DNA of 64,000 nt, taken from positions 73,955 through 137,954 of the forward strand of contig CALMJI010000018.1 of the NCBI GenBank assembly GCA_937864235.1, given 5' to 3'. A program made the translations under genes and the position numbers. The notes beneath the pieces were generated by a model, which was given only the letters and a program-made list of their open reading frames with translations, ran no database searches and was not told where the DNA came from. Source of the stretch: an uncultured bacterium. Lineage in GTDB: Bacteria; Patescibacteriota; Minisyncoccia; SW-4-49-11. The first letter of the stretch is position 1. The number at the start of each line of letters is the position of its first letter. Below are positions 2,044 to 64,000 of the stretch, one piece after another.

Positions 2044-3129
2044 TCAGCTCTGACTATTGCTTGAATATTTTTCTTTTACAGACTCCCAGAGTCTTTTTGC
2101 AAATTCTAATTTTTGCTCATCTGGAGCATTTTTGATAAATGGCATTCTTTTACCTAAGTAGTTATATTTATTTAAATTATATAGGAAGTAATTTATAAAT
2201 TGCTCTTCGGTTGGATTATCGGGGTGTTCTTTGAAAAACTTACCTATGAATGATCTATCATTTTCGTCTTTCTCCTCTTCAATATGTCTTAGTTCTTCCA
2301 TTCTATCTCTAAAACTATTCAGTAATGCATTCTCTCCATAAATACTAGCTGCAATTTCATTCACTGCTGGGATCAAATCTTTATTTTCTGCAATTCTAGA
2401 AGTCGTGAATTCTTTATTCCCATTCAAAGCAGATGCTAAATTACCCAAATATACTCTACCCCTACCTTCTTGTGCTGGCATTACTACAAAATGATCAAAG
2501 ACCGTATTAGTCCCATCCAAAAAGTCCGACTCTCTCAGAGTGTATTCTTGTATTTTACACTCAGCCATTGTATTAATATCCTTATAACCTTCCAAAGCTT
2601 GTTTTGGGAAAGTAAAATAAAGGTTATTATTGGCATCAAAATAAACTAAAGTATCCCCTGCTTGCTCTATAATTAAGAAAGTATGTCCAGGAGCCTGGAT
2701 GGTAGTATGCTCAATATTATGACTTTGCAGATAAGTTGAAGCTATCAATGTCCTACCAGCACATTCTAAATGTCCCGACTCCATAATAGACCTAATCAGC
2801 ACACCATCTTGAGGTGCATCTGGATCAAGTTCCGCTGTATCAGCATTGCTTTGCAGAAGCTTAAATAGTTCATAAGGCAAATCCTGTACCTCCACTCCCT
2901 CAAGACTTTGCTCAATTTCCTGATATCTTGGTAAAGCTTTGGTAGACTCTATCAGTGTACCTTCAAAATCATCTAATTTAATCTCCTCACTAATTCCCAA
3001 ACTCTCTAAAACGACCTTATTAGCCTCCTCCATTTGCTCTGGAGTAACTTCCTGTTCTACACCTGAGCCCTCAGCCAATTCTTCAGCTTCCTCAACTTTC
3101 CTAAAATTACCTCCATTTTCAATACCCAT
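2044..3129 (-). CDS. hypothetical protein (possible Cys/His peptidase-like motif SGHLECAGRTL...GHTFLI)
   Basis: 361 aa intact ORF convergent with the ATPase genes; no family confidently recognised. Confidence 0.4.
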   Translation of the reverse strand: MGIENGGNFRKVEEAEELAEGSGVEQEVTPEQMEEANKVVLESLGISEEIKLDDFEGTLIESTKALPRYQEIEQSLEGVEVQDLPYELFKLLQSNADTAELDPDAPQDGVLIRSIMESGHLECAGRTLIASTYLQSHNIEHTTIQAPGHTFLIIEQAGDTLVYFDANNNLYFTFPKQALEGYKDINTMAECKIQEYTLRESDFLDGTNTVFDHFVVMPAQEGRGRVYLGNLASALNGNKEFTTSRIAENKDLIPAVNEIAASIYGENALLNSFRDRMEELRHIEEEKDENDRSFIGKFFKEHPDNPTEEQFINYFLYNLNKYNYLGKRMPFIKNAPDEQKLEFAKRLWESVKEKYSSNSQS

Positions 3130-4092: not shown

Positions 4093-4563
4093 CTATTTTC
4101 CCAATCTTTTATTATATTTTTGTAGGCATAATTGATAACCTTCATCTATTAGCGGAAGTATTGTCTTTAATGTAGAGTTTGTTGGGTTAATAACACATAT
4201 CCATGACATCCAACCATATACTGGATGTGGAATAATTATGTTTTTTGATGTAAAATCATAATTCATATCTATTACCTTTCCTGCTTGTGGGCGATTTGGT
4301 ATACAGCCAAACAACTTAATAAATGTCTCCCTGCTTATGCCTAAATTCAATCTATAAAGATCTGGACTTATATTAAGATTAGATGATTTATCATTATCTC
4401 CATCTTTCTGCTTAAAAGTTAATAAATAGACTCCTTTTTTTAATTTATGTTCTGGATTATAAAATAAACCTATTTCTCCCCAATTTTTATTGACTACAAA
4501 ACCAGAATACTGATTGGTGATTATTTGTATAATTTCGTCTATTGTAAGTATCTTATCTTTCAT
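4093..4563 (-). CDS. hypothetical protein
   Basis: 156 aa intact ORF with no recognised motif. Confidence 0.35.
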   Translation of the reverse strand: MKDKILTIDEIIQIITNQYSGFVVNKNWGEIGLFYNPEHKLKKGVYLLTFKQKDGDNDKSSNLNISPDLYRLNLGISRETFIKLFGCIPNRPQAGKVIDMNYDFTSKNIIIPHPVYGWMSWICVINPTNSTLKTILPLIDEGYQLCLQKYNKRLGK

Positions 4564-4564
4564 C

Positions 4565-7276
4565 TTACTTCCCCTCCAATCTCGCTCGCCATTTGTAGAG
4601 TTCGGCTACAGCTATGACTACGACGATGGAGATAATTCCATAGTAAATAGAATCATATAGAGAGACTGGGGTGAATTGTAATATTCGCTGTAGGAACGGG
4701 AGGGTTATCATAGCTGCTAAGATTAGAGCTGAGGCAGCAACGGCTAGATTTATTATCTTATTAGAGAAGAATCCGATGCTGAATAGAGATTCCTTTGGGG
4801 ATCTCATATTATAGGTGTTCGCTAATTGCATCAGGGATAAACAGAGGAAAAACATTGTTCTTGCCTGCTCAATTCCATTACCCAAATAGGCTAAGAAAAT
4901 CCAGAAGCCTAAAGCGGTCATAGTCAAGGTCATCAAGATAATATATGGATATGTATTAGGTGATACTACTTTCATATTAGCGGGGAGTGGTTTTTCTAAC
5001 AGAATTCCTTGATGACTTCGCTCGGTGGCAAGAGCAATATCTGAAATTCCATTGGTGACTAAATTTAGACACAACACCTGTATTGCCAAAAGTGGTAGCG
5101 GTAGCCCCAGGCTAAGTGTCAACATAAATAATAAAATCTCAGCAATACTAGTAGTAATGAGGAAAATACTAGTCTGTTGTACATTACGGAATATTACTCT
5201 CCCCTCTTCTAGAGCCGAGATAATACTGACAAAATTATCATCAGTGAGTACAATATCACTGGCTTCCCTTGCAACATCGGTGCCTCTGATGCCCATAGCT
5301 ATGCCTATATCGGCTTTTTTGAGGGCTGGGGCATCATTTACCCCATCTCCAGTCATAGCCACGATATGCTTGTGTTTTTGTAAAATACTAGCTACTCTGA
5401 GCTTACTTCTTGGGCTAAGCCTAGCTATCACAGAAATATTTTTTAATTTTTTATATAATTCTTTATCAGATAAAGCTTGGATTTCATCATCAGTCAAAGC
5501 TTCTCCTGTCTCGTCTATCAAATCAATAGATTTGGCAATCGCAAGAGCAGTATCTTTATGGTCTCCTGTCGCCATAATTACTCTGACTCCAGCTTTTTTG
5601 GCCTGTGCAATAGCCTCTGCTACTTCAGCTCTGGGAGGATCTATAATCCCAACTATACCTATAAAGACTAAATTTTGCACTTGCTCAGCTTGAATAGATT
5701 TTAGACCAGCCTGCTCATCCCTATAAGCAAGAGCTATGACTCGCATAGCTTGTTTTGAGAAATCTATTATTTGCTGATTAACCTCTTTTATATGCTCAGC
5801 AGTTAAGTCTACTATATTACCTTTTTTATCTAAAATTTTATTACTTAATTTGAGTAAAGTCTCACTAGCTCCTATCACCATCAACTGATGTAAATCCTGA
5901 TCCTGATTATATACATAGCTGGCTCGGAATTTATTCTCCGAGCGAAATGGTAAATCTGCTAATCTATGCCATTCATTGTCTAATACATCTTTATTTAGAT
6001 TAGCTTTTAGAGATAAGACAGACAATGCTACCTCTGTCGGGTCTCCGATACTTTTAGTGCTAGACTGACCATTATCCAAAACTTCTTCGTACAATTGACC
6101 ATTATGAGCTAACCCAGCAATATGTAATAATTTAGCAATAGAAGGACAGTCTAAGGGGAGAATTTCATTATTATTTTGTTTGAATTCACCTTGTTTCTCT
6201 AGCCCCCTACCAGTGACATCTACTATAGGCTCATCTAGTACATACAATTTTTGTACTGTCATATTATTCTCAGTCAAAGTCCCAGTTTTATCTGTAATAA
6301 TCGTATCCATCACGGCTAGAGATTCTGTAACAGGCAGAGATCTAATAATTGCTTTTTTATCACTCATTCTCTTAGCCCCTATGGCTAACACCACTACCAA
6401 AACTACTGGTAAACTCTCAGGTATTCCACCTACCAGAGCAGATAAAGTAAATCCTATCATCTCATCTAGAGGTAAATTCCTAAACCAAAACCCAATCACA
6501 AACAAGATTGCCGCCGAACTAAAAGCAAAAATTGCCAACTGACGAGCCAAAGTAGCAGTCTGGGTATGAAAATGAGTTTCCTCCAGTGGTACTTTTTGGA
6601 TGTCATCAGCAATAGAGCCAATTTGAGTATTCATACCAGTAGCTACTACAACAGCTTTTGCCCAACCAGTAGCCACTAAAGTACCCATCCAAACTAAATT
6701 ACTTCTATCCCCAATCCCAACTTCTTCTGTAATAATATCTATAGATTTAGAAGAAGGTTGAGACTCCCCTGTCAAAGCCGCCTCTATAGTCTGTAATTCT
6801 ACAGACTCAATCAGCCTAGCATCAGCTGGGACTTTATCTCCCTCCTCTAGAACAATAATATCTCCCGGCACCAAATCTTTAGCATTATGCTCTTCTAGAT
6901 GCCCATCCCGATACACTTTAGTCTTGACTAGAATTTTCTGAGCCAAAGCAGATACAGCCCGTTCAGCTCTATATTCCTGAGAGAACCCAATAATAGAATT
7001 AATTACCACTATTACAATAATAATCCAAAAATCAACCCAATGATTAAATACAGCCGACAGTATAGCCGACAATAATAAAACATAAACCAAGCCATTATGA
7101 AATTGTTTTAAGAATAGCCAAATTGGAGATTCTACTTGCTTTTCTGACAGTATATTCTCTCCAAACTTTACTCTCCTAGTTATAGCTTCCTTGGAAGTGA
7201 TTCCAGTAAAATTAGAGTTCATATCAGCTAAAGATTCCTCAACGGATAGCTGATAATAGTTTTTGAATTTTTGCAT
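4565..7276 (-). CDS. P-type cation-transporting ATPase (Ca2+/Mg2+ type, E1-E2)
   Basis: 903 aa; DKTGTLT phosphorylation motif (ITDKTGTLTEN), TGDGVNDAPALKKADIGIAMG hinge motif and about 10 TM helices. Confidence 0.9.
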   Translation of the reverse strand: MQKFKNYYQLSVEESLADMNSNFTGITSKEAITRRVKFGENILSEKQVESPIWLFLKQFHNGLVYVLLLSAILSAVFNHWVDFWIIIVIVVINSIIGFSQEYRAERAVSALAQKILVKTKVYRDGHLEEHNAKDLVPGDIIVLEEGDKVPADARLIESVELQTIEAALTGESQPSSKSIDIITEEVGIGDRSNLVWMGTLVATGWAKAVVVATGMNTQIGSIADDIQKVPLEETHFHTQTATLARQLAIFAFSSAAILFVIGFWFRNLPLDEMIGFTLSALVGGIPESLPVVLVVVLAIGAKRMSDKKAIIRSLPVTESLAVMDTIITDKTGTLTENNMTVQKLYVLDEPIVDVTGRGLEKQGEFKQNNNEILPLDCPSIAKLLHIAGLAHNGQLYEEVLDNGQSSTKSIGDPTEVALSVLSLKANLNKDVLDNEWHRLADLPFRSENKFRASYVYNQDQDLHQLMVIGASETLLKLSNKILDKKGNIVDLTAEHIKEVNQQIIDFSKQAMRVIALAYRDEQAGLKSIQAEQVQNLVFIGIVGIIDPPRAEVAEAIAQAKKAGVRVIMATGDHKDTALAIAKSIDLIDETGEALTDDEIQALSDKELYKKLKNISVIARLSPRSKLRVASILQKHKHIVAMTGDGVNDAPALKKADIGIAMGIRGTDVAREASDIVLTDDNFVSIISALEEGRVIFRNVQQTSIFLITTSIAEILLFMLTLSLGLPLPLLAIQVLCLNLVTNGISDIALATERSHQGILLEKPLPANMKVVSPNTYPYIILMTLTMTALGFWIFLAYLGNGIEQARTMFFLCLSLMQLANTYNMRSPKESLFSIGFFSNKIINLAVAASALILAAMITLPFLQRILQFTPVSLYDSIYYGIISIVVVIAVAELYKWRARLEGK

Positions 7277-10578: not shown

Positions 10579-10710
10579 TCTATTCTTATCAGTTCTGTCT
10601 CAAGTATTTAAAATCTATTGTACTATAAAATAATCTTTTTGAATAGAGAAAAGCAATAGATTAGTAGTGCTTAGATAAATGAGATTATATAGCAAATTGA
10701 TATAATGTTT

Positions 10711-10971
10711 GTCCTCCTTTGGAGGAGGTGGTACGGAGTACCGGAGGTGTATTGAGCTAAATTCCCCTCTTGAGGGGTGTATTTCTACTATATTTATATA
10801 GTAGAAATACGGGGTGGAATAAAATATGAAAAAAACAATCTACTCCCATACGACACAAATGTTATTTTCTACTGTCCTCCTCCATCACCTTACGGTGCCA
10901 CCTACCTCCTAAATAAATATAGGATGGACTTAAAGCTCCCCCCTGCCTACCGCAAGTAGGCAAGGGAGGAC
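10711..10971. repeat. GC-rich modular intergenic repeat (stem-loop modules CCTCCT-ttgg-AGGAGG, GGTAC-gga-GTACC, CCCCTC-tt-GAGGGG) enclosing a perfect 15-bp inverted repeat at 10779-10810
   Basis: GC-rich palindromic modules in an AT-rich intergenic region; the same modules recur at more than 15 loci in the window. Confidence 0.8.
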
Positions 10972-19279: not shown

Positions 19280-19480
19280 TTGTCTCCTTTATTTTGTCTC
19301 CCTCCATATTTCGTAGGGGCGACCTTTCAGTCGCCTGTGTTTTTTCTAAAATTCCCCTATTGAGGGCTTTAAGTCCCTCCTATATTTATTTAGGAGGGGG
19401 TGGCACGGAGTGCCGGGGGTGGACTGTATTTGTATTTCTGTCCTCCCTTGGGGGAGGTGCCCGCAGGGCGGAGGAGGACA
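19280..19480. repeat. GC-rich modular intergenic repeat (modules GGCGAC-loop-GTCGCC, CCCCT-a-ttGAGGG, GGCAC-gga-GTGCC, CCTCCC-ttgg-GGGAGG)
   Basis: Same module family as the other loci. Confidence 0.8.
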
Positions 19481-24338: not shown

Positions 24339-24611
24339 AAATTCCCCTCTCGAGAGATAGCAGGCTTTGCCTGACGGGGTGGAGTATTTCTGTACTTCAC
24401 CTTTCTGTCTCCCTTTGGAGGGAGTACCCGTAATAGACTGAAAGTCTGGGAAAGGGGTCGGGAAAACGGCAGTTTTCCCGTGGAGGAAGGCTGGGAAACC
24501 GTGAGGTTTCACAAGAGCAAATCTCATTTGCGACGGGGGAGGGTGGATAAAACACAAACTAAAACTCTATCCACCTCCGGCACTCTGTGCCACCTCCTCC
24601 AAAGGAGGACA
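24339..24611. repeat. GC-rich modular intergenic repeat (includes GCAAATctcATTTGC hairpin module)
   Basis: Shares modules with 25248-25492, 37190-37300 (inverted) and 60200-60290. Confidence 0.8.
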
Positions 24612-24736
24612 ATTACTATCCAATTTACTGTTATTAGTCTAGTAATGTATATAATCCCTTTTGTCGACGATTACCTCATCTCGCACATAAACTTGACAAA
24701 ATATTAAGTTTAAGTTAATATTGAGATACAAATTGC

Positions 24737-27374: not shown

Positions 27375-27680
27375 TCATCTCCACCCTTCGTAGGGGCGAC
27401 CTCTCAGTCGCCTGTATTTTGTACTAAATTCCCCTCTCCTCCCAAGGCGGATTTCATTGAGGGGTGGACAGCTTCGCTGGACGGGGTGGAGTGTATTTTT
27501 GTCCCCCTTTGGAGGGGGTACCTGCAAGGTGGGGGTGGATTGTATTCTGCCCCTCACTGCCCTTTTGTCCCTCGTTTTTTAATCCGCCTTGGGAGGAGGC
27601 GAGGGTGGCACGGAGTGCCGGGTGTGGACTGAGCTTCCCTCCCCTTTTACGATAAAAGGCATACCCAAGATAGTAAATCT
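27375..27680. repeat. GC-rich modular intergenic repeat (largest mosaic copy)
   Basis: Contains nearly all modules seen elsewhere, including a nested insertion of the aatccgccttgggaggag module inside the CCCCTC...GAGGGG hairpin. Confidence 0.85.
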
Positions 27681-36816: not shown

Positions 36817-36917
36817 ATATTTTTAGGGTTATTGTTTTATTATAGCATGGGTTGGGGTGTGTGTGAATTATAAATGGTGAATTATGAGTTTGTAGGGGCT
36901 AAAATGCAAAAGCAAAA

Positions 36918-37390
36918 CTCAATCCACCCCGTCCAGCGTAGCTGTCCACCCCTCGAGAGGGGAATTAGCTCAGTCCTACTCCGGCCTATCGGCCACCTCC
37001 CCCGAGGGAGGACAAGAGGGCAAGTTGCAAAGTACATCCACCCTCCCCCTTCGGGGACTCCCTCCTAAGGGAGACAGAAGCTCTGAAGGCCAGAAATCCA
37101 ATATTCAAAATACACTCCACCCCGTCCAGCATAGCTGTCCACCCCTCAAGAGGGGAATTTAGCTCAGGCTGCAAAATACGGTCCTCCTCCGCCGTCGCAA
37201 ATGGGATTTGCTCCTGTGAAACCTCTCGGTTTCCCAACCTTCCTCAACGGGAAAACTTCTGTTTTCCCAACCCCTTTCCCAGACTTTCAGTCTACTTCGT
37301 GCCACCTCCCCCAAGGGAGGACAAGAGGGCAAGTTGCAAAGTATCAAATACAGGCGACTGAGAGGTCGCCCCTACGAGATGGGAGGGTAG
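36918..37390. repeat. GC-rich modular intergenic repeat (about 470 bp, two tandem composite copies)
   Basis: Module set similar to 38420-38645; contains an inverted copy of the GCAAAT..ATTTGC / gtttcccaaccttcctc module seen at 24430-24540. Confidence 0.8.
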
Positions 37391-48369: not shown

Positions 48370-48750
48370 TGTCCTCCTCCGTCACTTTACGGTGCCACCT
48401 CCCCCAAGGGAGGACAGTAATTTTGTCCCTCGCCGGCGAGGGTGGCACGGAGCGCCGGGTGTGGACTTGTCTTTGATAGGTATTTTTTATCCACCCTCCC
48501 ACTACGGGTACGCCCTCCCTGCCTACCGCAGGCAGGCAAAAGGAGACAAAAAGCAGAGTTCAGGCGACTGAAAGGTCGCCCCTACGAGGACAGAATATAC
48601 TATTTAACTCTATCCACCTCCGGCCTAAAGGCAACCTCCTCCTAAGGAGGACACGATCTCCAATGCAGGACAATCCACCCCGTCAATAAAAGATTTCCAC
48701 CCCTCAATGAAATCCGCCTTGGGCGGAGAGGGGAATTTTAATATAGCCCC
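48370..48750. repeat. GC-rich modular intergenic repeat
   Basis: Modules shared with 19280-19480 and 10872-10971 (ctgcctaccgcaggcaggc, GGCAC-gga-GCGCC). Confidence 0.8.
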
Positions 48751-55561: not shown

Positions 55562-55650
55562 TTCCTCGCCAATTTTTCCGTAGGGGCGACCTCTCAGTCG
55601 CCTGTGTTTTCGTAGAGGAGAGTGACTTCCCTCAACACACCCCAATTATT
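55562..55650. repeat. GC-rich repeat module (GGCGAC-ctctca-GTCGCC type)
   Basis: Same module as 27387-27410, 19313-19335, 37355-37378 and 56430-56455. Confidence 0.75.
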
Positions 55651-56338
55651 TTCGCTAATTACCCTTGACAAAATTAGGAAAATGTGGTATATACACCATA
55701 CCTTTCGCTTTGCGAAAATGCCTAAATTGGAAAGTTGGGTGATGGCAGGTATCCGCCGTCAATCCACTTGGTGGAAACACCAAGAAATCAGGCTCTTCTG
55801 GGAGCCTGACATTCATCTAGCTACCGTCAGGGTAGTAATCGATGAACTGAACCTGCTATGCCAAGCAATTGGCCTGCAGTTCAAACTGATCCCATTCGGA
55901 TCACACCAGAGTGCCATGATACAGCTCAAAGCTGTCACTCATGACAATCAAATTGACTATAATCGTTTTTTCGATATAGTCGTTGCCGAGGATTGGAGGA
56001 ATGAGAGTATCGGCGGGCGAGAGCACGGAGATATTTTCATAACTACCAAACACCTCCTTGATGACCCAGTGTCATTAGGATGTGCAAGTTACACAGATGG
56101 TTGTATTCTCTTTGCTCTCCATGGGCAAAGTCAACACAACCATACTCTCCTAAGGAGACTAGTTCGCCACGAGGCAACTCATCTTCTGGGACTTGGACTG
56201 CATTGTAATGAATTCCCTGTACAGGGATATCATTACAATGATAGGTGTAACATGCACTACCACCTTCCCTCTGGGGAAACTTGCCCCAAGTGCTTGGATT
56301 ACCTTCGAGCATTTTGGACACATCTAGGTAGATTATGA
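55622..56338 (+). CDS. putative zinc metallopeptidase (metzincin/archaemetzincin-like HExxHxxGxxxH plus C-terminal Cys cluster); compositionally GC-richer than neighbours
   Basis: VRHEATHLLGLGLHC ... CNM ... CPKC; the true start may be an internal Met (MWYIHH or MPKLESW) because the 5' end overlaps the repeat. Confidence 0.4.
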   Translation: MTSLNTPQLFSLITLDKIRKMWYIHHTFRFAKMPKLESWVMAGIRRQSTWWKHQEIRLFWEPDIHLATVRVVIDELNLLCQAIGLQFKLIPFGSHQSAMIQLKAVTHDNQIDYNRFFDIVVAEDWRNESIGGREHGDIFITTKHLLDDPVSLGCASYTDGCILFALHGQSQHNHTLLRRLVRHEATHLLGLGLHCNEFPVQGYHYNDRCNMHYHLPSGETCPKCLDYLRAFWTHLGRL

Positions 56339-58900: not shown

Positions 58901-58937
58901 AAAATAATTTTGATTATATATTTTTTGTACTGTGATT

Positions 58938-59060
58938 CTGTCCTCCTTCGGAGGAGGTGGCACGGAGTGCCGGAGGTGGATAGAGTTTGAGTTTGTATTT
59001 TATCCACCCTCCCTCCTAAGGGGGACAAAAAGCAGAATAAAGGCGACTGAAATATCCCAC
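58938..59060. repeat. GC-rich modular intergenic repeat
   Basis: CCTCCT-tcgg-AGGAGG, GGCAC-gga-GTGCC and aggcgactgaaa modules. Confidence 0.75.
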
Positions 59061-59135
59061 TAAAAAATATTTGCTATAAAATAAATTTATGCTATACTCA
59101 AAATAAGTTAAGTATAAAAATATGGAATTAAATAA

Positions 59136-59738: not shown

Positions 59739-60141
59739 TCCGCGATAGCTCAGCGGTAGAGCAGTCGGCTGTGAATGCCTTCTTGAGTCGTCGTAAAATA
59801 ATTATATTTTTATGTCTGACAAAAGAAAATATTCTGATCGTGCTGAATATCTTTTTTAGAAATTCACTCCGATCTAGTCGCAGCCTCTTCTGGTAACAGA
59901 AGTTGAAACACGAGGTGAATTGCTGGAAGCCTAAGGTAGTAATACTAAGGCAATCAGCAGCCAAGTCTAGCAAAACTAGAAAGGTTCAGAGACTATCCCA
60001 AAAGGGAGTACATTGTAGCAATACAGTGGAAGCGCCTCGCTCCATCAAAACGATGGATGATGATATAGTCCACGCCTATTAGAAATATTAGGACAAGGTG
60101 TAACCGATTGGTCGTAGGTTCGAATCCTACTCGCGGAGCCA
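59739..60141 (+). tRNA. tRNA-Asn (anticodon GUU) interrupted by an intron in the anticodon loop (exons 59739-59772 and 60101-60141, CCA encoded)
   Basis: Exons fold as a cloverleaf: acceptor TCCGCGA/TCGCGGA (U1-A72, discriminator G73 as in E. coli tRNA-Asn), D-arm GCTC-AGCGGTA-GAGC, anticodon stem GTCGG/CCGAT, spliced loop CTGT|TAA giving anticodon GTT, variable loop TGGTC, T-arm GTAGG-TTCGAAT-CCTAC. Confidence 0.7.
59773..60100 (+). ncRNA. group I (IC3-like) self-splicing intron inside tRNA-Asn
   Basis: 5' exon ends in U and the intron ends in G; IGS GCAGCC (59879-59884) complements exon GGCUGU; P2 hairpin TCTTCTGgtaaCAGAAG; core blocks GTGAATTGCTGGAAGCCTAAGG and GGCAATCAGCAGCCAAGTC resemble Azoarcus/Tetrahymena P3-P4 and J6/7; CAGAGACTA (P7 5') paired with TAGTC (60066-60070); P8 TCCCaaaaGGGA; P9 hairpin before omega-G. 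Confidence 0.6.
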
Positions 60142-60153
60142 AAATATAAAAGG

Positions 60154-60174
60154 GGAGATTTTGTCTCCTTTTTT
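60154..60174 (+). terminator. rho-independent terminator after tRNA-Asn
   Basis: GGAGAttttGTCTCC hairpin followed by T6; near-identical copy at 63438-63461. Confidence 0.65.
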
Positions 60175-60194
60175 ATATTTCTTGTCTTTTGAGA

Positions 60195-60319
60195 GAGTAG
60201 GATGAGAACCTGGGGAAGGGGTCGGGAAACGAGAGTTTCCAGTGGCGGAGGTATTGGAACCGAGGGGTTCCAAGGAGTGAATCCCATTCACGACTGGTTT
60301 GCAATCCTACTCGCGGAGC
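60195..60319. repeat. GC-rich repeat module followed by a partial direct copy of the tRNA-Asn 3' end (60295-60319)
   Basis: GGTTTGCAATCCTACTCGCGGAGCA versus tRNA GGTTCGAATCCTACTCGCGGAGCCA. Confidence 0.7.
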
Positions 60320-60330
60320 AAAATCCCTTT

Positions 60331-60355: not shown

Positions 60356-60391
60356 GGTCTGTAATACTTATCTATATAAATATGACAATGA

Positions 60392-60453
60392 TTGACATAT
60401 TTAATTTTATATGCTAATGTTTTCTAGTCCTTGTTCTTTCACATCACAGGAGG
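60392..60453 (+). promoter_or_regulatory. sigma70-like promoter plus RBS of the radical SAM gene
   Basis: TTGACA (60392-60397), 17-nt spacer, TAATGT (60415-60420); AGGAGG at 60448-60453, 6 nt before the ATG. Confidence 0.55.
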
Positions 60454-60459
60454 CTTTCC

Positions 60460-61629
60460 ATGAAACTACTTCTTCGTAAAGAGTCCTTTGGAGGAACCCT
60501 CTTCGTACCCTCTAGTGGTAAAAGATTCTATCTTAACACAAAAGAGTACTCAGAGTTAACCTCTACTCACAAATTGCCACCTGATATTGAAAAATCTCTT
60601 GGATTGCAAAATCTGACTAATATCGACCTGATAGTTGTAGAACCTGATTTCTTGCCTATAGAGAACTTTAGCAGCCCAGACAAAGTATTTTTTGAACTTA
60701 CTCGCAGGTGTAATTTAACCTGTATTCAGTGTTTAAATGACTCAGGTTCAGAACTAAGTGATGAACTAAATCATTCCCAAAAGGTAAAGATTATTTCTGA
60801 CTTAGCACAGTCTGGAATACAAGAAGTTCGATTTACGGGTGGAGAACCTTTGGCTGACAAGTCTTGGTTTGAAATCGCCAAAGAGGCAAAAAAATACGGC
60901 TTAAGAGTATCTTTCGGATCAAATGGCACCCTGATAACTGAGCCTGTTGTAAAGCTGATGCAATCAATTGGAGTTAATTCAGTTATTACGAGCCTAGATG
61001 GTCTCAAAGACACACATGAAGCAATTAGAGGATATGCATCGTGGGAAAAAACTATTCTTGCTATTAGTCTTCTCAAAGAAGCAAACATAGAGGTAAGAGT
61101 TAACTTTGTACTAATGAGAGAAAATATTCATGAGGTTTATGACCTCTGTGAATTTATTCTGTCAAAAGGGGTTCCTGTTTTTCTCAGACGATTCATACCC
61201 AGCGGTAGAGGTTCAGGAAGTTTTCATCAAATACTCACTCAAAAAGAATATGATCTTTTGAACCAGTCTCTTAGCCCACTAATTCATCAGTTTGGAAGCC
61301 TAATTCAAGGCCACTATATCAACGAGTCTCCTGTACTATCTAGAATCCCTCTCCCATTTAAAAGAAAAAGCTGTAGTGCAGTGCACAGAGGAATGGTAGT
61401 ACTCCCAAATGGGAAGCTATCAAGCTGTGGTTTTCTTGCAGACCTAGGAGAAGGAGAGATTGGAGACCTTCAAAAGGAGTCCTTCCTTTCCATTTGGAGG
61501 CATCTAAATGAAACTCAATACGTTCATACATTTGAAAGTAGGGTAGGAAAGTTTAACCAATCAAATCCAGGACCAGCTAATGGATGCCTAGCTCTTGCCC
61601 ATGCATACACCAATAAAGGAGAAGGTTAA
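60460..61629 (+). CDS. radical SAM enzyme with N-terminal PqqD-like (RRE-like) extension and C-terminal Cys-containing auxiliary (twitch/SPASM-like) domain
   Basis: CxxxCxxC (RRCNLTCIQC) at about residue 83; N-terminal LLLRKESFGGTLFVPSSGKRFYLNTKEYSELT resembles PqqD/RRE strands; C-terminal Cys (KSCSAV, SSCGF, NGCLA); GGE-like FTGGEPL block. Confidence 0.75.
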   Translation: MKLLLRKESFGGTLFVPSSGKRFYLNTKEYSELTSTHKLPPDIEKSLGLQNLTNIDLIVVEPDFLPIENFSSPDKVFFELTRRCNLTCIQCLNDSGSELSDELNHSQKVKIISDLAQSGIQEVRFTGGEPLADKSWFEIAKEAKKYGLRVSFGSNGTLITEPVVKLMQSIGVNSVITSLDGLKDTHEAIRGYASWEKTILAISLLKEANIEVRVNFVLMRENIHEVYDLCEFILSKGVPVFLRRFIPSGRGSGSFHQILTQKEYDLLNQSLSPLIHQFGSLIQGHYINESPVLSRIPLPFKRKSCSAVHRGMVVLPNGKLSSCGFLADLGEGEIGDLQKESFLSIWRHLNETQYVHTFESRVGKFNQSNPGPANGCLALAHAYTNKGEG

Positions 61630-62156
61630 TGATCGTCTTAACAGGACTACATGGCTCAGGAAAAAGCCACCTCTGTTCTATTTTAAAATCAGAAGGGTGT
61701 TACATTGTTAATAAACGAGAAATTTTATCAAGGATGTTCCTAGATCAAGGTAAAGGATATTCATTCGATGATTGGATGAAGCATCAGTATACTACCCCTG
61801 GGAATGATGCAGCAAATATGATGTTACGGATATTGGATTACGTACCAAAAGATCAGTTGATTCAAAATATGCTTCTGGTCTTTGATGCAATTCACAACCT
61901 AGCAGAATGGGAAGTGATTTATACAAAGTATCCAAATAGCATCTTAGCCCTTGTAGCATCACCGTTAAATGTGAGAGCTAGTAGGAACTCTATTGAGGAT
62001 GAGATCCTCGATAAAAAAAGAGTACAGTACTGGCATGAGAGTTCTGTAGAAGGGAAATCAAGCTGCTTAATGTCACACGTAGAAGCTTGCTTTAATGGAA
62101 ACATATCAGACACAGTTCAAACACAAATAGTGCGAGAGTTTATATCAACCTTATAG
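61629..62156 (+). CDS. P-loop NTPase/kinase-like protein
   Basis: Walker A GLHGSGKS at the N-terminus; start overlaps the rSAM stop (ATGA), indicating translational coupling. Confidence 0.5.
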   Translation: MIVLTGLHGSGKSHLCSILKSEGCYIVNKREILSRMFLDQGKGYSFDDWMKHQYTTPGNDAANMMLRILDYVPKDQLIQNMLLVFDAIHNLAEWEVIYTKYPNSILALVASPLNVRASRNSIEDEILDKKRVQYWHESSVEGKSSCLMSHVEACFNGNISDTVQTQIVREFISTL

Positions 62157-62230
62157 TCTAGTCGCTCTATCTAATCAAGGAAGATGTAACAACATCTTCC
62201 TTTTCCATATCTATTATATATCTTTACTAT

Positions 62231-62932
62231 ATGAAAAAAGTTTTAGCAGTATTATCTCTAAATAATGACTATTCTGAAGCTATTAGCAAGCTAAATGCTG
62301 TGTCAGAAGAAATATTGTTTGAAATAACTTATATCGAGAACTTATCTCTATCTAAACTTAATAATATGCATTATTATGATGCTATTTATATTGTAAATAA
62401 TAATGATCTGACAAGACAATTCTTACCAATCCTAAACCATAAGACAAAATTTTTAATTAATAAGACTTATTGGTTTGAAAACTTTAGTAAGGTTACAGCT
62501 CAACAAAATTTAAAAATCAATAATATTTTAGCGCCTTCCATAATCTACCCTCTGCCAACAGACTATATAGAGGAATATTTTATTAAATCTATATCTCATA
62601 CAGTAGGAGTAATTCATCCAAAGGACGCTCAAAAGAATTTTAATAAATGTAATAAACTTCAATATTACCTAGAAGAACAAGTTATAACTGGGAAAGAAGA
62701 GAAGATATATGTTGTAAATAATGAATGCTCTCTCAACAATCTCCCATATAATGACTTTAGTAAAGATATCGAGAGAATATCTACGATATTAGGACTCAAT
62801 GTTTTTTCAGCAGATGTGTTTATTGATAATGATAGTATAAATATAGTTGATGTAAACCCTGCATCTTGTTTTTTTAAGGATGATTATGCAAGACATAAGT
62901 TTATAGATTACCTCAAGATTATGTTATACTAA
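62231..62932 (+). CDS. ATP-grasp-like protein (putative ligase)
   Basis: C-terminal block EKIYVVNNECS...LGLNVFSADVFIDNDSINIVDVNPAS resembles the ATP-grasp Mg/ATP-binding C-domain (xxEVNxxPG-like); low-complexity AT-rich. Confidence 0.35.
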   Translation: MKKVLAVLSLNNDYSEAISKLNAVSEEILFEITYIENLSLSKLNNMHYYDAIYIVNNNDLTRQFLPILNHKTKFLINKTYWFENFSKVTAQQNLKINNILAPSIIYPLPTDYIEEYFIKSISHTVGVIHPKDAQKNFNKCNKLQYYLEEQVITGKEEKIYVVNNECSLNNLPYNDFSKDIERISTILGLNVFSADVFIDNDSINIVDVNPASCFFKDDYARHKFIDYLKIMLY

Positions 62933-62965
62933 TGTTATGTATTTACAAATTTATAACCTACCCCC

Positions 62966-63370
62966 ATGCAAAAACTTAAATCTGGAGCAATTATACTCTC
63001 AAATGACTCTACTAAAATCCTTCTTGTCTATAGAGGTAAAGAAGCTGATTGGTCTTTTCCTAAAGGACATATTGAGGAAAATGAGATTCCAGTAGACGCT
63101 ATGAAAAGAGAAGTAAAGGAAGAAACTGGTTTAGAGGTGTCTACAGTAATCACAGAATTGACTCCTATAGAGTATATAGATAGCAAAAATATCCTATGCC
63201 GTACGCATTATTTTCTATGTACAGCTCATGAGGGAGAACTTATTACTGAAAAACCTGATGATAAATTAGAGTGGATAGAAATAAATTTAGTACACGATAC
63301 TCTATCTTATGACAATCTCAAAGAGTATTGGAAAGAGAATGTATTGCCTAATCTACCAAGAAAAGCTTAA
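62966..63370 (+). CDS. Nudix hydrolase
   Basis: Nudix box GHIEENEIPVDAMKREVKEETGL (Gx5Ex7REUxEExGU). Confidence 0.8.
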   Translation: MQKLKSGAIILSNDSTKILLVYRGKEADWSFPKGHIEENEIPVDAMKREVKEETGLEVSTVITELTPIEYIDSKNILCRTHYFLCTAHEGELITEKPDDKLEWIEINLVHDTLSYDNLKEYWKENVLPNLPRKA

Positions 63371-63397: not shown

Positions 63398-63465
63398 AGT
63401 TCGAAACATATCCACGAGAGGGAGCAAAAATATAAAAGAGGAGATTTCTGTCTCCTTTTTTATAT
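63398..63465 (+). repeat. decayed direct repeat of the tRNA-Asn 3' end plus its terminator (putative attR-like island boundary); also a bidirectional terminator
   Basis: AGTTCGAAACATATCCACGAGAGGGAGCAAAAATATAAAAGAGGAGATTTCTGTCTCCTTTTTTATATTA versus 60118-60180 GGTTCGAATCCTACTCGCGGAGCCAAAATATAAAAGGGGAGATTTTGTCTCCTTTTTTATATTT. Confidence 0.5.
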
Positions 63466-63467
63466 TA

Positions 63468-64000
63468 TCATATATACTTCTGAGCCTCTCCCCATTCCTC
63501 CTCAGATAAATTTCCTTTAATCACAAGAGATTTAATATGAGATGATAGAAATTGTTTTGCTAGAGCTATAACTTCTTCATAAGATATTGCTCTTATATCC
63601 TTATAGAAATCTTCTAAGGTAATATGTATTCCATCATTATAAGGTAACTGTAACCCATAAAAAGATTGTATTTCATATATGCTACCATCTTGAGTTTTTG
63701 CATCACTGATATAAATAGTTTTATATCTTTCTATATCTTGTGGTGTTATCAGAGACGCCAGATTGTTAATAGAGTTATAGATAATTTGCAATGATTCTAT
63801 TAACTTTTCTTTTTCTATTTTATATTGAAATTGTATATCTATACTATTAGGATGTACAGTTGAATACGAATCAATCCAATATACTAAATTATTCTTAATA
63901 CGTAATTCTTGTAATAATACTGAGGTCCAAAAATTAGCTAAAGCTGTTCGTAAAATTGATAACGTAGTGCTTGTTCTAAGATTTATCGTATTGGGGATGG
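63468..64000 (-). CDS. partial gene (runs off the window end): C-terminal domain reminiscent of M16-family (insulinase-like) peptidase
   Basis: The 63468-63791 frame has ITLEDFYKDIRAISYEEVIALAKQFL, typical of M16 C-terminal domains; coding continues upstream in another frame or beyond the window. Confidence 0.25.
   Translation of the reverse strand, partial: IPNTINLRTSTTLSILRTALANFWTSVLLQELRIKNNLVYWIDSYSTVHPNSIDIQFQYKIEKEKLIESLQIIYNSINNLASLITPQDIERYKTIYISDAKTQDGSIYEIQSFYGLQLPYNDGIHITLEDFYKDIRAISYEEVIALAKQFLSSHIKSLVIKGNLSEEEWGEAQKYI

Follow-up and report, generated by a model that had tools for sequence, protein, structure and literature searches.

A conserved gene set encoding a radical SAM enzyme, an NMP-kinase-like protein, an ATP-grasp enzyme and a Nudix hydrolase in Patescibacteriota and other bacteria

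We analyzed a 64,000-nucleotide stretch of DNA, hereafter the window, from an uncultured bacterium of the Patescibacteriota (assembly GCA_937864235.1, contig CALMJI010000018.1, positions 73,955 to 137,954). Four adjacent plus-strand genes at positions 60460-63370, encoding a radical S-adenosylmethionine (SAM) enzyme (rSAM), a P-loop protein, an ATP-grasp enzyme and a Nudix hydrolase, constitute one operon and encode one conserved pathway. In its architecture the rSAM corresponds to a peptide maturase, with a putative recognition domain of the MftB/PqqD type in front of the catalytic core and a twitch domain, and the ATP-grasp enzyme is the hub of the pathway. An earlier note on this DNA, made from the sequence alone, had proposed a peptide or small-molecule modification cluster with hallmarks of pathways to peptides that ribosomes make and that are modified after translation (RiPPs), or equally a nucleotide or cofactor tailoring pathway. 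Its assignments of all four proteins are borne out, whereas the precursor, peptidase and transporter set of a RiPP cluster was not found.

Structure of the operon

All four open reading frames (ORFs) of the earlier note were confirmed. The features of the locus are as follows.

60460-61629, plus strand: rSAM enzyme, 389 amino acids
60460-60645, plus strand: RiPP recognition element (RRE)-like domain of the rSAM, residues 1-62
60685-61209, plus strand: rSAM core, residues 76-250
60709-60732, plus strand: CxxxCxxC motif of the rSAM
61360-61626, plus strand: twitch-type domain of the rSAM, residues 301-389, with three invariant Cys
61629-62156, plus strand: P-loop protein resembling nucleoside monophosphate (NMP) kinases, 175 amino acids, Walker A motif GLHGSGKS
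62177-62202, plus strand: hairpin AAGGAAGATG-TAACAA-CATCTTCCTT seen in the gap between the P-loop and ATP-grasp genes, without a clear T-tract
62231-62932, plus strand: compact ATP-grasp protein (ORF3), 233 amino acids
62966-63370, plus strand: Nudix hydrolase, 134 amino acids, Nudix box GHIEENEIPVDAMKREVKEETGL
60392-60420, plus strand: putative promoter, TTGACA (60392-60397), a 17-nt spacer and TAATGT (60415-60420)
60449-60454, plus strand: Shine-Dalgarno sequence AGGAGG, 5 nt 5' of the rSAM ATG
63439-63456, no strand assigned: bidirectional terminator hairpin, common to the operon and a convergent M16-like gene

The stop codon TAA of the rSAM gene (61627-61629) overlaps the start codon of the P-loop gene (61629-61631) by one base, TAATG, which agrees with the translational coupling predicted in the earlier note, and the same overlap of stop and start is seen in at least 15 loci. 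The putative promoter is kept in a close relative (locus L136). Its -35 hexamer is good, and the -10 hexamer is weak; since the latter fits the consensus at only 3 of 6 positions, the promoter was not listed by a consensus scan. The convergent M16-like gene fragment at 63468-64000, also reported in the earlier note, is real.

Conservation of the gene set

Thirty-three loci with members of the rSAM family were collected, of which 26 are informative, having at least 2.3 kb of downstream flank. One of the collection scans picked the generic motif E[IV]RFTGGEP and yielded mostly actinobacterial MftC-like loci, only L007-L012 being useful; the metagenome scan was re-targeted with an alignment of the twitch domain. 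All four genes are found together in 24 of the 26 informative loci and in 27 of the 33 overall, counts that are not fully independent because some metagenomic loci are near-duplicates. The named loci come from Kaiserbacteria, Minisyncoccota, Saccharibacteria, Parachlamydiales, Clostridia and 'Mycoplasma sp. CAG:611'; a family member from Uhrbacteria is known by protein name only. In the 24 complete informative loci the set spans 2.1-6.6 kb, and less than 3.8 kb in all except one. The two exceptions are a locus of Saccharibacteria (L012) without the ATP-grasp gene, and L088, where the ATP-grasp gene follows the rSAM gene and the usual Nudix protein and kinase have given way to a different Nudix protein and a PezT-like kinase.

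The genes vary in order and orientation among the loci (for example, L147, L150, L153 and L155), a variation that speaks for selection acting on the set and against a block that was simply inherited. Gene fusions of three kinds were also observed: Nudix–ATP-grasp in six representatives (P0174, P0178, P0182, P0207, P0210 and P0218), ATP-grasp–methyltransferase in two (P0181 and P0209), and rSAM–ATP-grasp in one (P0137). Co-occurrence across phyla, combined with these fusions, therefore assigns the proteins to one pathway, and the comparison of gene neighborhoods called for in the earlier note came out in its favor. The same evidence, together with the rearranged gene orders, refutes a chance neighborhood of unrelated housekeeping genes, for which it can be said that each of the domain families is common, and nothing more.

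A class I SAM methyltransferase is the fifth member of the module in 9-10 loci, about one third. The M16 peptidase was rejected as a member, being present at 2 of the 33 loci only (the window, where it is convergent, and L090). Identities among the rSAM proteins roughly track taxonomy, which suggests long residence in these lineages, and the neighbors of the module in genomes of the candidate phyla radiation (CPR) are housekeeping genes. No family member was found in IMG/VR or phage records, and on this ground a phage origin was rejected. The genomes of CPR bacteria, Parachlamydiales and Mollicutes-like Firmicutes are reduced; since the module is kept across them, and its parts are joined by three kinds of fusion, it is likely to be important to these bacteria.

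Several loci show local irregularities. The ATP-grasp gene is in three fragments in L089 (8256-8974, minus strand), the Parachlamydiales locus L005 (8177-8656) has just the N-terminal half of that gene, and the Nudix and ATP-grasp genes are frame-shifted or fused in L003 (8072-9197); assembly errors or pseudogenization are possible in each case. In two loci from gut Clostridia a Lys/Glu-rich, coiled-coil-like ORF of 67-70 amino acids lies between the kinase and Nudix genes (L003, 7859-8071; L009, 9860-10063), and the kinases of these loci have an extra charged C-terminal tail of about 50 amino acids; neither feature occurs in CPR loci. On the CPR contig L087, about 3 kb upstream of the module, a LOOT RNA (Rfam RF03000, 82 bits; 2868-2983, minus strand) was detected in the vicinity of a gene for a serine recombinase.

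The radical SAM enzyme

The rSAM has the two hallmarks of the radical SAM superfamily, the CxxxCxxC motif and a partial TIM-barrel core with the GGE SAM-binding motif, and Pfam Radical_SAM matches its residues 79-233 (E 1.8e-23). In the alignment of 31 full-length homologues (32-60% identity) the cluster ligands C84, C88 and C91 and the FTGGEP motif are invariant, and nine Arg residues are at least 90% conserved. N-terminal to the core lie about 75 residues. The AlphaFold model of the protein has an overall pLDDT (predicted local distance difference test) of 92.

The full SPASM domain is defined by the 7-Cys motif CX9-15GX4C…CX2CX5CX3C…C, and the twitch domain is its first half only. Pfam SPASM (PF13186) matches rSAM residues 305-349 barely above the cut-off (22.9 versus 21.5 bits). 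In the C-terminal part C305-X12-G318-X4-C323 is invariant, as is C376, and the alignment contains no CX2CX5CX3C block there. With only three invariant C-terminal Cys, the auxiliary domain, whose Cys the earlier note had pointed out, is therefore twitch-like and not a full 7-Cys SPASM, and the enzyme belongs to the SPASM/twitch subgroup. In such a half-SPASM with three Cys one iron may have no Cys ligand.

Membership in known equivalog families was assessed by NCBIfam trusted cut-offs for MoaA, NirJ/AhbD, MftC, PqqE and SkfB. The rSAM scored 132 bits with NirJ2 and 122 bits with AhbD (cut-off 500 for both), 103 with MftC (cut-off 265), 90 with SkfB (TIGR04403; cut-off 300), 84 with MoaA (cut-off 284) and 72 with PqqE (cut-off 381), and thus reaches the cut-off of no curated NCBIfam equivalog; PADLOC likewise yields no match above cut-off for it. 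A comparison table, which holds two figures per protein in unlabelled columns, gives the following values for RRE-bearing peptide maturases: SkfB, 32.5 and 329; SuiB, 28.7 and 332. For other enzymes the values are: ChlB, 23.8 and 280; anSME, 23.5 and 284; BlsE, 22.8 and 263; PqqE, 22.5 and 251; MoaA, 22.1 and 263; and viperin, 21.9 and 239. The rSAM resembles SkfB, SuiB and MftC, yet belongs to none of these families.

The N-terminal domain is predicted by AlphaFold2 to be well folded (pLDDT 95-97), with the topology β1-β2-β3-α1-α2, and it superposes on the RREs of SkfB and SuiB. Among the first 30 residues of the rSAM nine are invariant across phyla (R6, E8, F10, G11, T13, G20, R22, Y24 and E29), compared to 49 of 389 in the whole protein, and this high invariance suggests a conserved binding partner. 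The motif LRxExFGG…(K/R)RxY formed in this region is the MftB motif, with LLRKESFGGTLF…GKRxYL in the window-type domain and VALRPEPFGALAY…RRLxFL in MftB. The third helix of the canonical winged helix-turn-helix is missing, which counts against a PqqD-like RRE. We conclude that the region of about 75 residues that the earlier note had likened to PqqD is probably a shortened RRE-type domain, as judged by its predicted topology and the MftB motif. The view that the rSAM is a member of a housekeeping family with an unstructured N-terminal region and with neighbors that do not co-occur elsewhere is at odds with the unreached cut-offs, the folded domain and the conserved gene set.

The partner proteins

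Invariant residues of the P-loop protein include D86, H89, R116, R119, R131, H136 and C146. Over 128 residues the profile of the family aligns with SSO1041, an archaeal AdkA-like protein (E 2.4e-8); adenylate kinase 9 (AK9) and dephospho-CoA kinase are matched as well. Among Pfam families, AAA_18 matches 8 of 9 members, AAA_33 matches 7 of 9, and AAA_17 and Cytidylate_kin2 match the family as well, every one of these scores being below the gathering score. On these profile matches the protein is tentatively assigned an NMP-kinase-type fold, consistent with the P-loop kinase of the earlier note. Neither this protein nor ORF3 matches a curated family above the cut-off in Pfam, NCBIfam or PADLOC.

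ORF3 itself gave no Pfam or NCBIfam match. A word-indexed search for its homologues returned only its own cluster, and an exhaustive HMMER search yielded 70 cluster representatives. Its structural model (pLDDT 95) has an ATP-grasp fold, and the best Foldseek match has an E-value of 9e-11, with TM-scores on the query of 0.60-0.74. The best folds, at E-values of about 1e-10, are those of ArgX/LysX (in complex with LysW, a carrier), PsnB (a graspetide ligase) and RimK (in complex with RpsF); these best matches act on C-termini of peptides or proteins. The predicted ATP/Mg residues K119, E148, K158, D207 and N209 are invariant among 43 sequences, and D195 is at least 90% conserved. With the three-domain fold, the conserved Lys and the Mg-binding acidic and Asn residues characteristic of the superfamily, the model identifies ORF3 as an ATP-grasp enzyme, in agreement with the earlier note.

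The Nudix assignment likewise holds. The protein matches PF00293 with 65.8 bits (cut-off 21.1 bits, E 5e-18), and its canonical, intact box conforms to the superfamily pattern GX5EX7REUXEEXGU. In 16 orthologues E40, R48, E49, E52 and E53 are invariant, as is Y70, located 14 residues past the box; the tail of the protein has the conserved motif LSYDNLKEY. Of the proteins with solved structures, Dcp2 (E 4.6e-12 over residues 7-125), Ndx1, which is an Ap6A hydrolase, and an Ap4A hydrolase are nearest, and NCBIfam RppH models match at about 3e-11. A mate of the protein in its 90% cluster carries the name 'Candidatus Elulimicrobium humile'.

A sister system in proteobacteria

A tblastn search of plasmids revealed an rSAM on a Rhizobium plasmid that is 29.7% identical to the window rSAM, the N-terminal domain being included in the match. 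It belongs to a sister family of about 29 cluster representatives, with 28-30% identity to the window rSAM; residues R6, E8, F10, G11 and S71 are invariant across both families. We looked at five sister loci (L158, 5399-8554; L160, L161, L162 and L163, around 4100-7200). Each contains two tandem rSAM/SPASM genes, both encoding the same N-terminal motif and fuller SPASM Cys sets, and the top curated match of both enzymes is MftC. In all five loci a small ORF ending in KKRI[FY]K[VIM]ST[FM]HH lies directly upstream of the rSAM genes, and it clearly encodes a precursor-type peptide.

The sister loci further encode a MazG-like nucleoside triphosphate (NTP) pyrophosphatase (3/5; L158, L160 and L161), a thymidylate-kinase-like protein (3/5; L158, L162 and L163) or adenylate kinase (1/5; L161), and TPR and HhH-GPD-like proteins. 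No ATP-grasp or Nudix gene was found in the five loci. Thus two distantly related systems combine an RRE-bearing rSAM with an NMP-kinase fold and an NTP pyrophosphatase by means of parts that are not orthologous, and in the sister system a real peptide is encoded alongside. Precursor and ATP-grasp are complementary, the sister system having only the former and the window type only the latter. L158 is located among plasmid and transposase genes, and L162 among conjugation genes. A literature search found nothing on the STFHH peptide; the tandem-rSAM system is apparently undescribed. The system (…RIFKVSTFHH) offers a tractable way to learn the role of an RRE-rSAM beside an NMP-kinase fold and an NTP pyrophosphatase.

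Search for a precursor peptide

No conserved small ORF was detected near the approximately 33 loci by blastp clustering of ORFs of at least 25 amino acids, and a sensitive short-peptide search (blastp-short) across the same loci found nothing. Among the loci no mini-ORF recurs upstream of the rSAM gene, no common C-terminal motif was detected, and no STFHH-type peptide is present at window-type loci. A scan of the whole 64-kb window for ORFs anchored by Shine-Dalgarno sequences revealed nothing suggestive of a precursor, and Rfam identified no riboswitch or leader upstream of the operon in the window or at 11 other loci. The earlier note had likewise seen no precursor ORF nearby, and its doubt about the 11-amino-acid ORF MTMIDIFNFIC was justified: the ORF exists (60382-60417), is kept only in the 99%-identical relative L136 and has no counterpart 5' of the rSAM gene in other lineages. 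A precursor may be encoded elsewhere in the genome.

With no precursor gene in or next to it, the operon is not a classical self-contained RiPP cluster. As to leader peptidase, export and immunity functions, neither an ABC transporter nor a C39 peptidase recurs at the loci. The pairing of an MdnB/MdnC-type macrocyclase with a cognate precursor, typical of graspetides, was not found either: PsnB is a top fold for the 233-residue ORF3 and is inseparable from ArgX, RimK and Ddl (D-Ala-D-Ala ligase), and no precursor was detected. A published survey of CPR graspetides makes no mention of Nudix-linked loci (PMC8939145). Our literature search retrieved nothing on this combination of rSAM, kinase, ATP-grasp and Nudix genes, which the earlier note had called undescribed.

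Proposed pathway and alternative explanations

The explanation that we tentatively favor, at somewhat below an even chance, is a peptide- or carrier-linked substrate that is supplied or extended by the ATP-grasp enzyme and modified by radical chemistry, together with nucleotide chemistry of the kinase and the pyrophosphatase. The RimK/LysX-like ATP-grasp enzyme would convert a carboxylate via an acyl-phosphate to an amide, and so build or extend a peptide-like substrate, which might be attached to a trans-encoded carrier, a protein C-terminus or a nucleotide-linked acid. Docking of this substrate would fall to the recognition domain at the N-terminus of the rSAM, and the open iron of the 3-Cys auxiliary cluster could bind it; substrate binding by an open auxiliary-cluster iron has precedents in CteB and MoaA. 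The 5'-deoxyadenosyl radical would then take a hydrogen; as with MftC or SkfB, an oxidative decarboxylation or a cross-link would result. The NMP-kinase-like protein and the ApnA/Dcp2-like Nudix hydrolase may be responsible for phosphorylation or nucleotidylation followed by trimming of pyrophosphate, and the class I methyltransferase, where present, would methylate or cap the product.

A number of observations weigh against this explanation. The Pfam PqqD hidden Markov model does not match the N-terminal domain even at E <= 10, and the profile-profile comparison (hhalign) with four annotated MftB proteins from annotated plasmid records, albeit yielding an E-value of 5.8e-5, gave a probability of only 65% over 34 columns. 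For ORF3, Ddl, ITPK1 and PPIP5K2 lie within two orders of magnitude of the best E-values, and Pfam RimK and Ins134_P3_kin match its family equally (17 of 43 members each). The kinase and Nudix folds are of small-molecule nucleotide types, and BlsE, DesII, MoaA and viperin, whose substrates are nucleotides or sugar nucleosides, are respectable structural matches of the rSAM. At CPR-type loci no precursor, carrier or conserved small ORF is encoded in cis. An extended short-chain dehydrogenase/reductase (SDR) similar to dTDP-glucose dehydratase and UXS lies within the operon in three loci of Clostridia (L003, L009 and L088), nucleoside diphosphate (NDP)-sugar 6-dehydrogenases adjoin the module in L088 and L005, and L005 contains a CYTH protein, a classical SDR and what was judged by eye to be an APH-type kinase fragment; to these one may add the PezT-like kinase of L088. 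Finally, the kinase of the sister system aligns with the window P-loop family over the P-loop only (37 columns), for which reason it was rejected as an orthologue, and the parallel between the two systems is an analogy only.

Much of this would suit pure small-molecule tailoring of a nucleotide or NDP-sugar acid, the main and a serious alternative, already named in the earlier note, which we regard as possible though unlikely. The Nudix hydrolase might here convert an NTP, NDP-X or ApnA-type compound to a monophosphate; the rSAM might oxidize or decarboxylate it like BlsE, DesII, MoaA or viperin, the RRE-like domain being repurposed as a lid or nucleotide-binding module; and in the late steps the ATP-grasp enzyme might amidate a carboxylate, the methyltransferase might methylate, and the NMP kinase might re-phosphorylate the product. 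Such a scheme parallels the dCTPase, hydroxymethylase and dNMP kinase logic of phage T4. It is favored by the P-loop profile (SSO1041/AdkA-like, AK9, dephospho-CoA kinase and Cytidylate_kin2), by Dcp2 and the Ap6A and Ap4A hydrolases as the nearest Nudix relatives and the invariant Tyr past the box, by the nine conserved Arg of the rSAM, by the SDR, NDP-sugar 6-dehydrogenase, CYTH, APH-like and PezT-like genes at non-CPR loci, by the lack of a precursor peptide in every search, and by the MazG-like, dTMP-kinase-like and HhH-GPD-like genes of the sister family. However, the N-terminal domain retains the MftB recognition motif, a genuine, conserved peptide is encoded in the sister family, and the sugar enzymes are missing from every CPR locus, which are the majority.

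The similarity to viperin raises a further scenario, an anti-phage or antagonistic system in which a toxic nucleotide analogue would be produced as by a prokaryotic viperin (pVip) with its kinase, while the Nudix hydrolase would provide self-protection or processing. PADLOC pVip models match the rSAM core (E 1.9e-17), the Nudix protein matches the PADLOC candidate-system model PDC-S07 (E 1.9e-14), and pVip loci typically have an adjacent nucleotide kinase. Neighbors of mobile or defense type were also found, namely a recombinase in L087, Fic in L089, and PezT with metallo-β-lactamase (MBL) and nucleotidyltransferase genes in L088, and the sister system occurs on conjugative plasmids among transposases. 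Nevertheless, the absence from viral records, the housekeeping neighbors in CPR genomes and the long residence suggested by the taxonomic signal make a defense role quite improbable; nor does the rSAM fit the pVip pattern, namely a viperin-specific NTP-binding C-terminal extension, no auxiliary cluster and no N-terminal RRE. We assign a still lower probability, a very slight one, to processing or repair of RNA 5' ends, which would involve decapping or pyrophosphate removal by the Nudix hydrolase, polynucleotide kinase (PNK) activity of the P-loop protein and Hen1-like action of the methyltransferase. Dcp2 as the best solved relative of the Nudix protein, the RppH matches and the tRNA genes that immediately precede the operon in L089, L136 and the window agree with this explanation. 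The AAA_33, KTI12 and PNK-type matches of the kinase could be added, yet they are weak and at noise level (E 0.05-0.3); moreover, no RNA ligase is present and we know of no RNA substrate of a RimK-type ATP-grasp enzyme. The neighboring tRNAs differ in kind (Asn and Trp among them), so that their linkage is probably a coincidence and was rejected as such. The probability left over belongs to something outside the explanations listed here.

A broader proposal, which goes beyond the favored peptide- or carrier-linked substrate and is distinctly unlikely, is that the cassette and its proteobacterial sister represent a new class of recognition-domain-guided rSAM pathways uniting peptide and nucleotide chemistry. 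The ATP-grasp ligase of the CPR type would then replace the ribosomal precursor by building the substrate on a carrier or nucleotide, and the product could be either a conjugate of peptide and nucleotide or a cofactor derived from a peptide, comparable to mycofactocin and PQQ. If the product is of this kind, the pathway would be a new route to such molecules, and RRE domains would be able to work without a precursor encoded in cis. In any case, the cassette of about 3 kb is a compact and clonable target for new radical SAM chemistry.

Other elements of the window

Directly upstream of the operon lies a tRNA-Asn(GUU) gene (59741-60142), which ARAGORN misses. A group I intron of about 327 nt (Rfam RF00028, 59794-60092, 86.5 bits) interrupts it between positions 35 and 36 of the anticodon. 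In L136, the relative with 99% identity, this tRNA gene is intron-free; therefore, the presence of the intron varies within the lineage. Compared to L136, about 180 nt are inserted in the 3' part of the tRNA gene (window about 60115-60320). The insert supplies the tRNA with a fresh 3' end, CCA included, and also holds a terminator hairpin (60148-60172) and some 110 nt of GC-rich sequence; behind it comes the displaced, slightly degenerate old tRNA 3' end at 60296-60320. Region 60186-60325 folds at -49.8 kcal/mol (z -2.83). The arrangement resembles an att-type duplication that a small inserted element has left behind.

GC-rich modular hairpin repeats, for example GTCCTCCCTTGGGGGAGG, GGTGGCACGGAGTGCCGG and GTAGGGGCGACCTCTCAGTCGCCTG, are dispersed at 14 or more intergenic sites in surrounding sequence of low GC content, including 10700-10970, 19300-19480, 24340-24620, 27380-27640, 36870-37390, 48390-48740, 58930-59070 and 60198-60229. 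They are similar to repetitive extragenic palindromic (REP) sequences or miniature inverted-repeat transposable elements (MITEs), and one copy is located in the insert just upstream of the rSAM operon. Elsewhere in the window, a plus-strand ORF of 238 amino acids (55622-56338) with an HEATH (HExxH) motif and a Cys-rich C-terminus has no match in Pfam or NCBIfam.

Comparison with known systems

The rSAM shares with SkfB and SuiB the succession of N-terminal recognition domain, rSAM core and auxiliary-cluster domain, and with SkfB also the twitch, rather than full SPASM, domain. It differs in that its identity to these proteins is only 16-23%, in that the window locus has no precursor, transporter or immunity genes, and in that the kinase, ATP-grasp and Nudix partners are missing from the SkfB and SuiB loci. 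The mycofactocin system is similar in the MftB motif of the N-terminal domain, in MftC being among the top curated matches of the rSAM, and in that a peptide-derived small molecule is plausible as the type of product. In contrast to it, the RRE-like domain is here fused to the rSAM, the auxiliary domain has three Cys instead of the full SPASM set, and genes for MftA, MftD, MftE and MftF are absent.

ORF3 resembles RimK, LysX and ArgX in its predicted fold (Foldseek E 1e-10 to 1e-8, TM-score on query 0.66-0.74) and in the nucleotide- and Mg-binding residues. However, it is much shorter (233 amino acids) and reaches no Pfam threshold, is equally near to ITPK1 and PPIP5K2, and has no LysW- or S6-type partner that we could find. 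The side-by-side arrangement of an rSAM, an NMP-kinase fold and an NTP pyrophosphohydrolase is reminiscent of viperin with its kinase and of the phage T4-type logic. Finally, the STFHH system has in common with the window operon the motif of the N-terminal domain, the accompanying NMP-kinase-fold protein and an NTP pyrophosphatase, whereas it is distinguished by its own precursor, two rSAMs with fuller SPASM Cys sets, TPR and HhH-GPD-like genes, the lack of ATP-grasp and Nudix genes, and a kinase that is only generically related to the P-loop family of the window.

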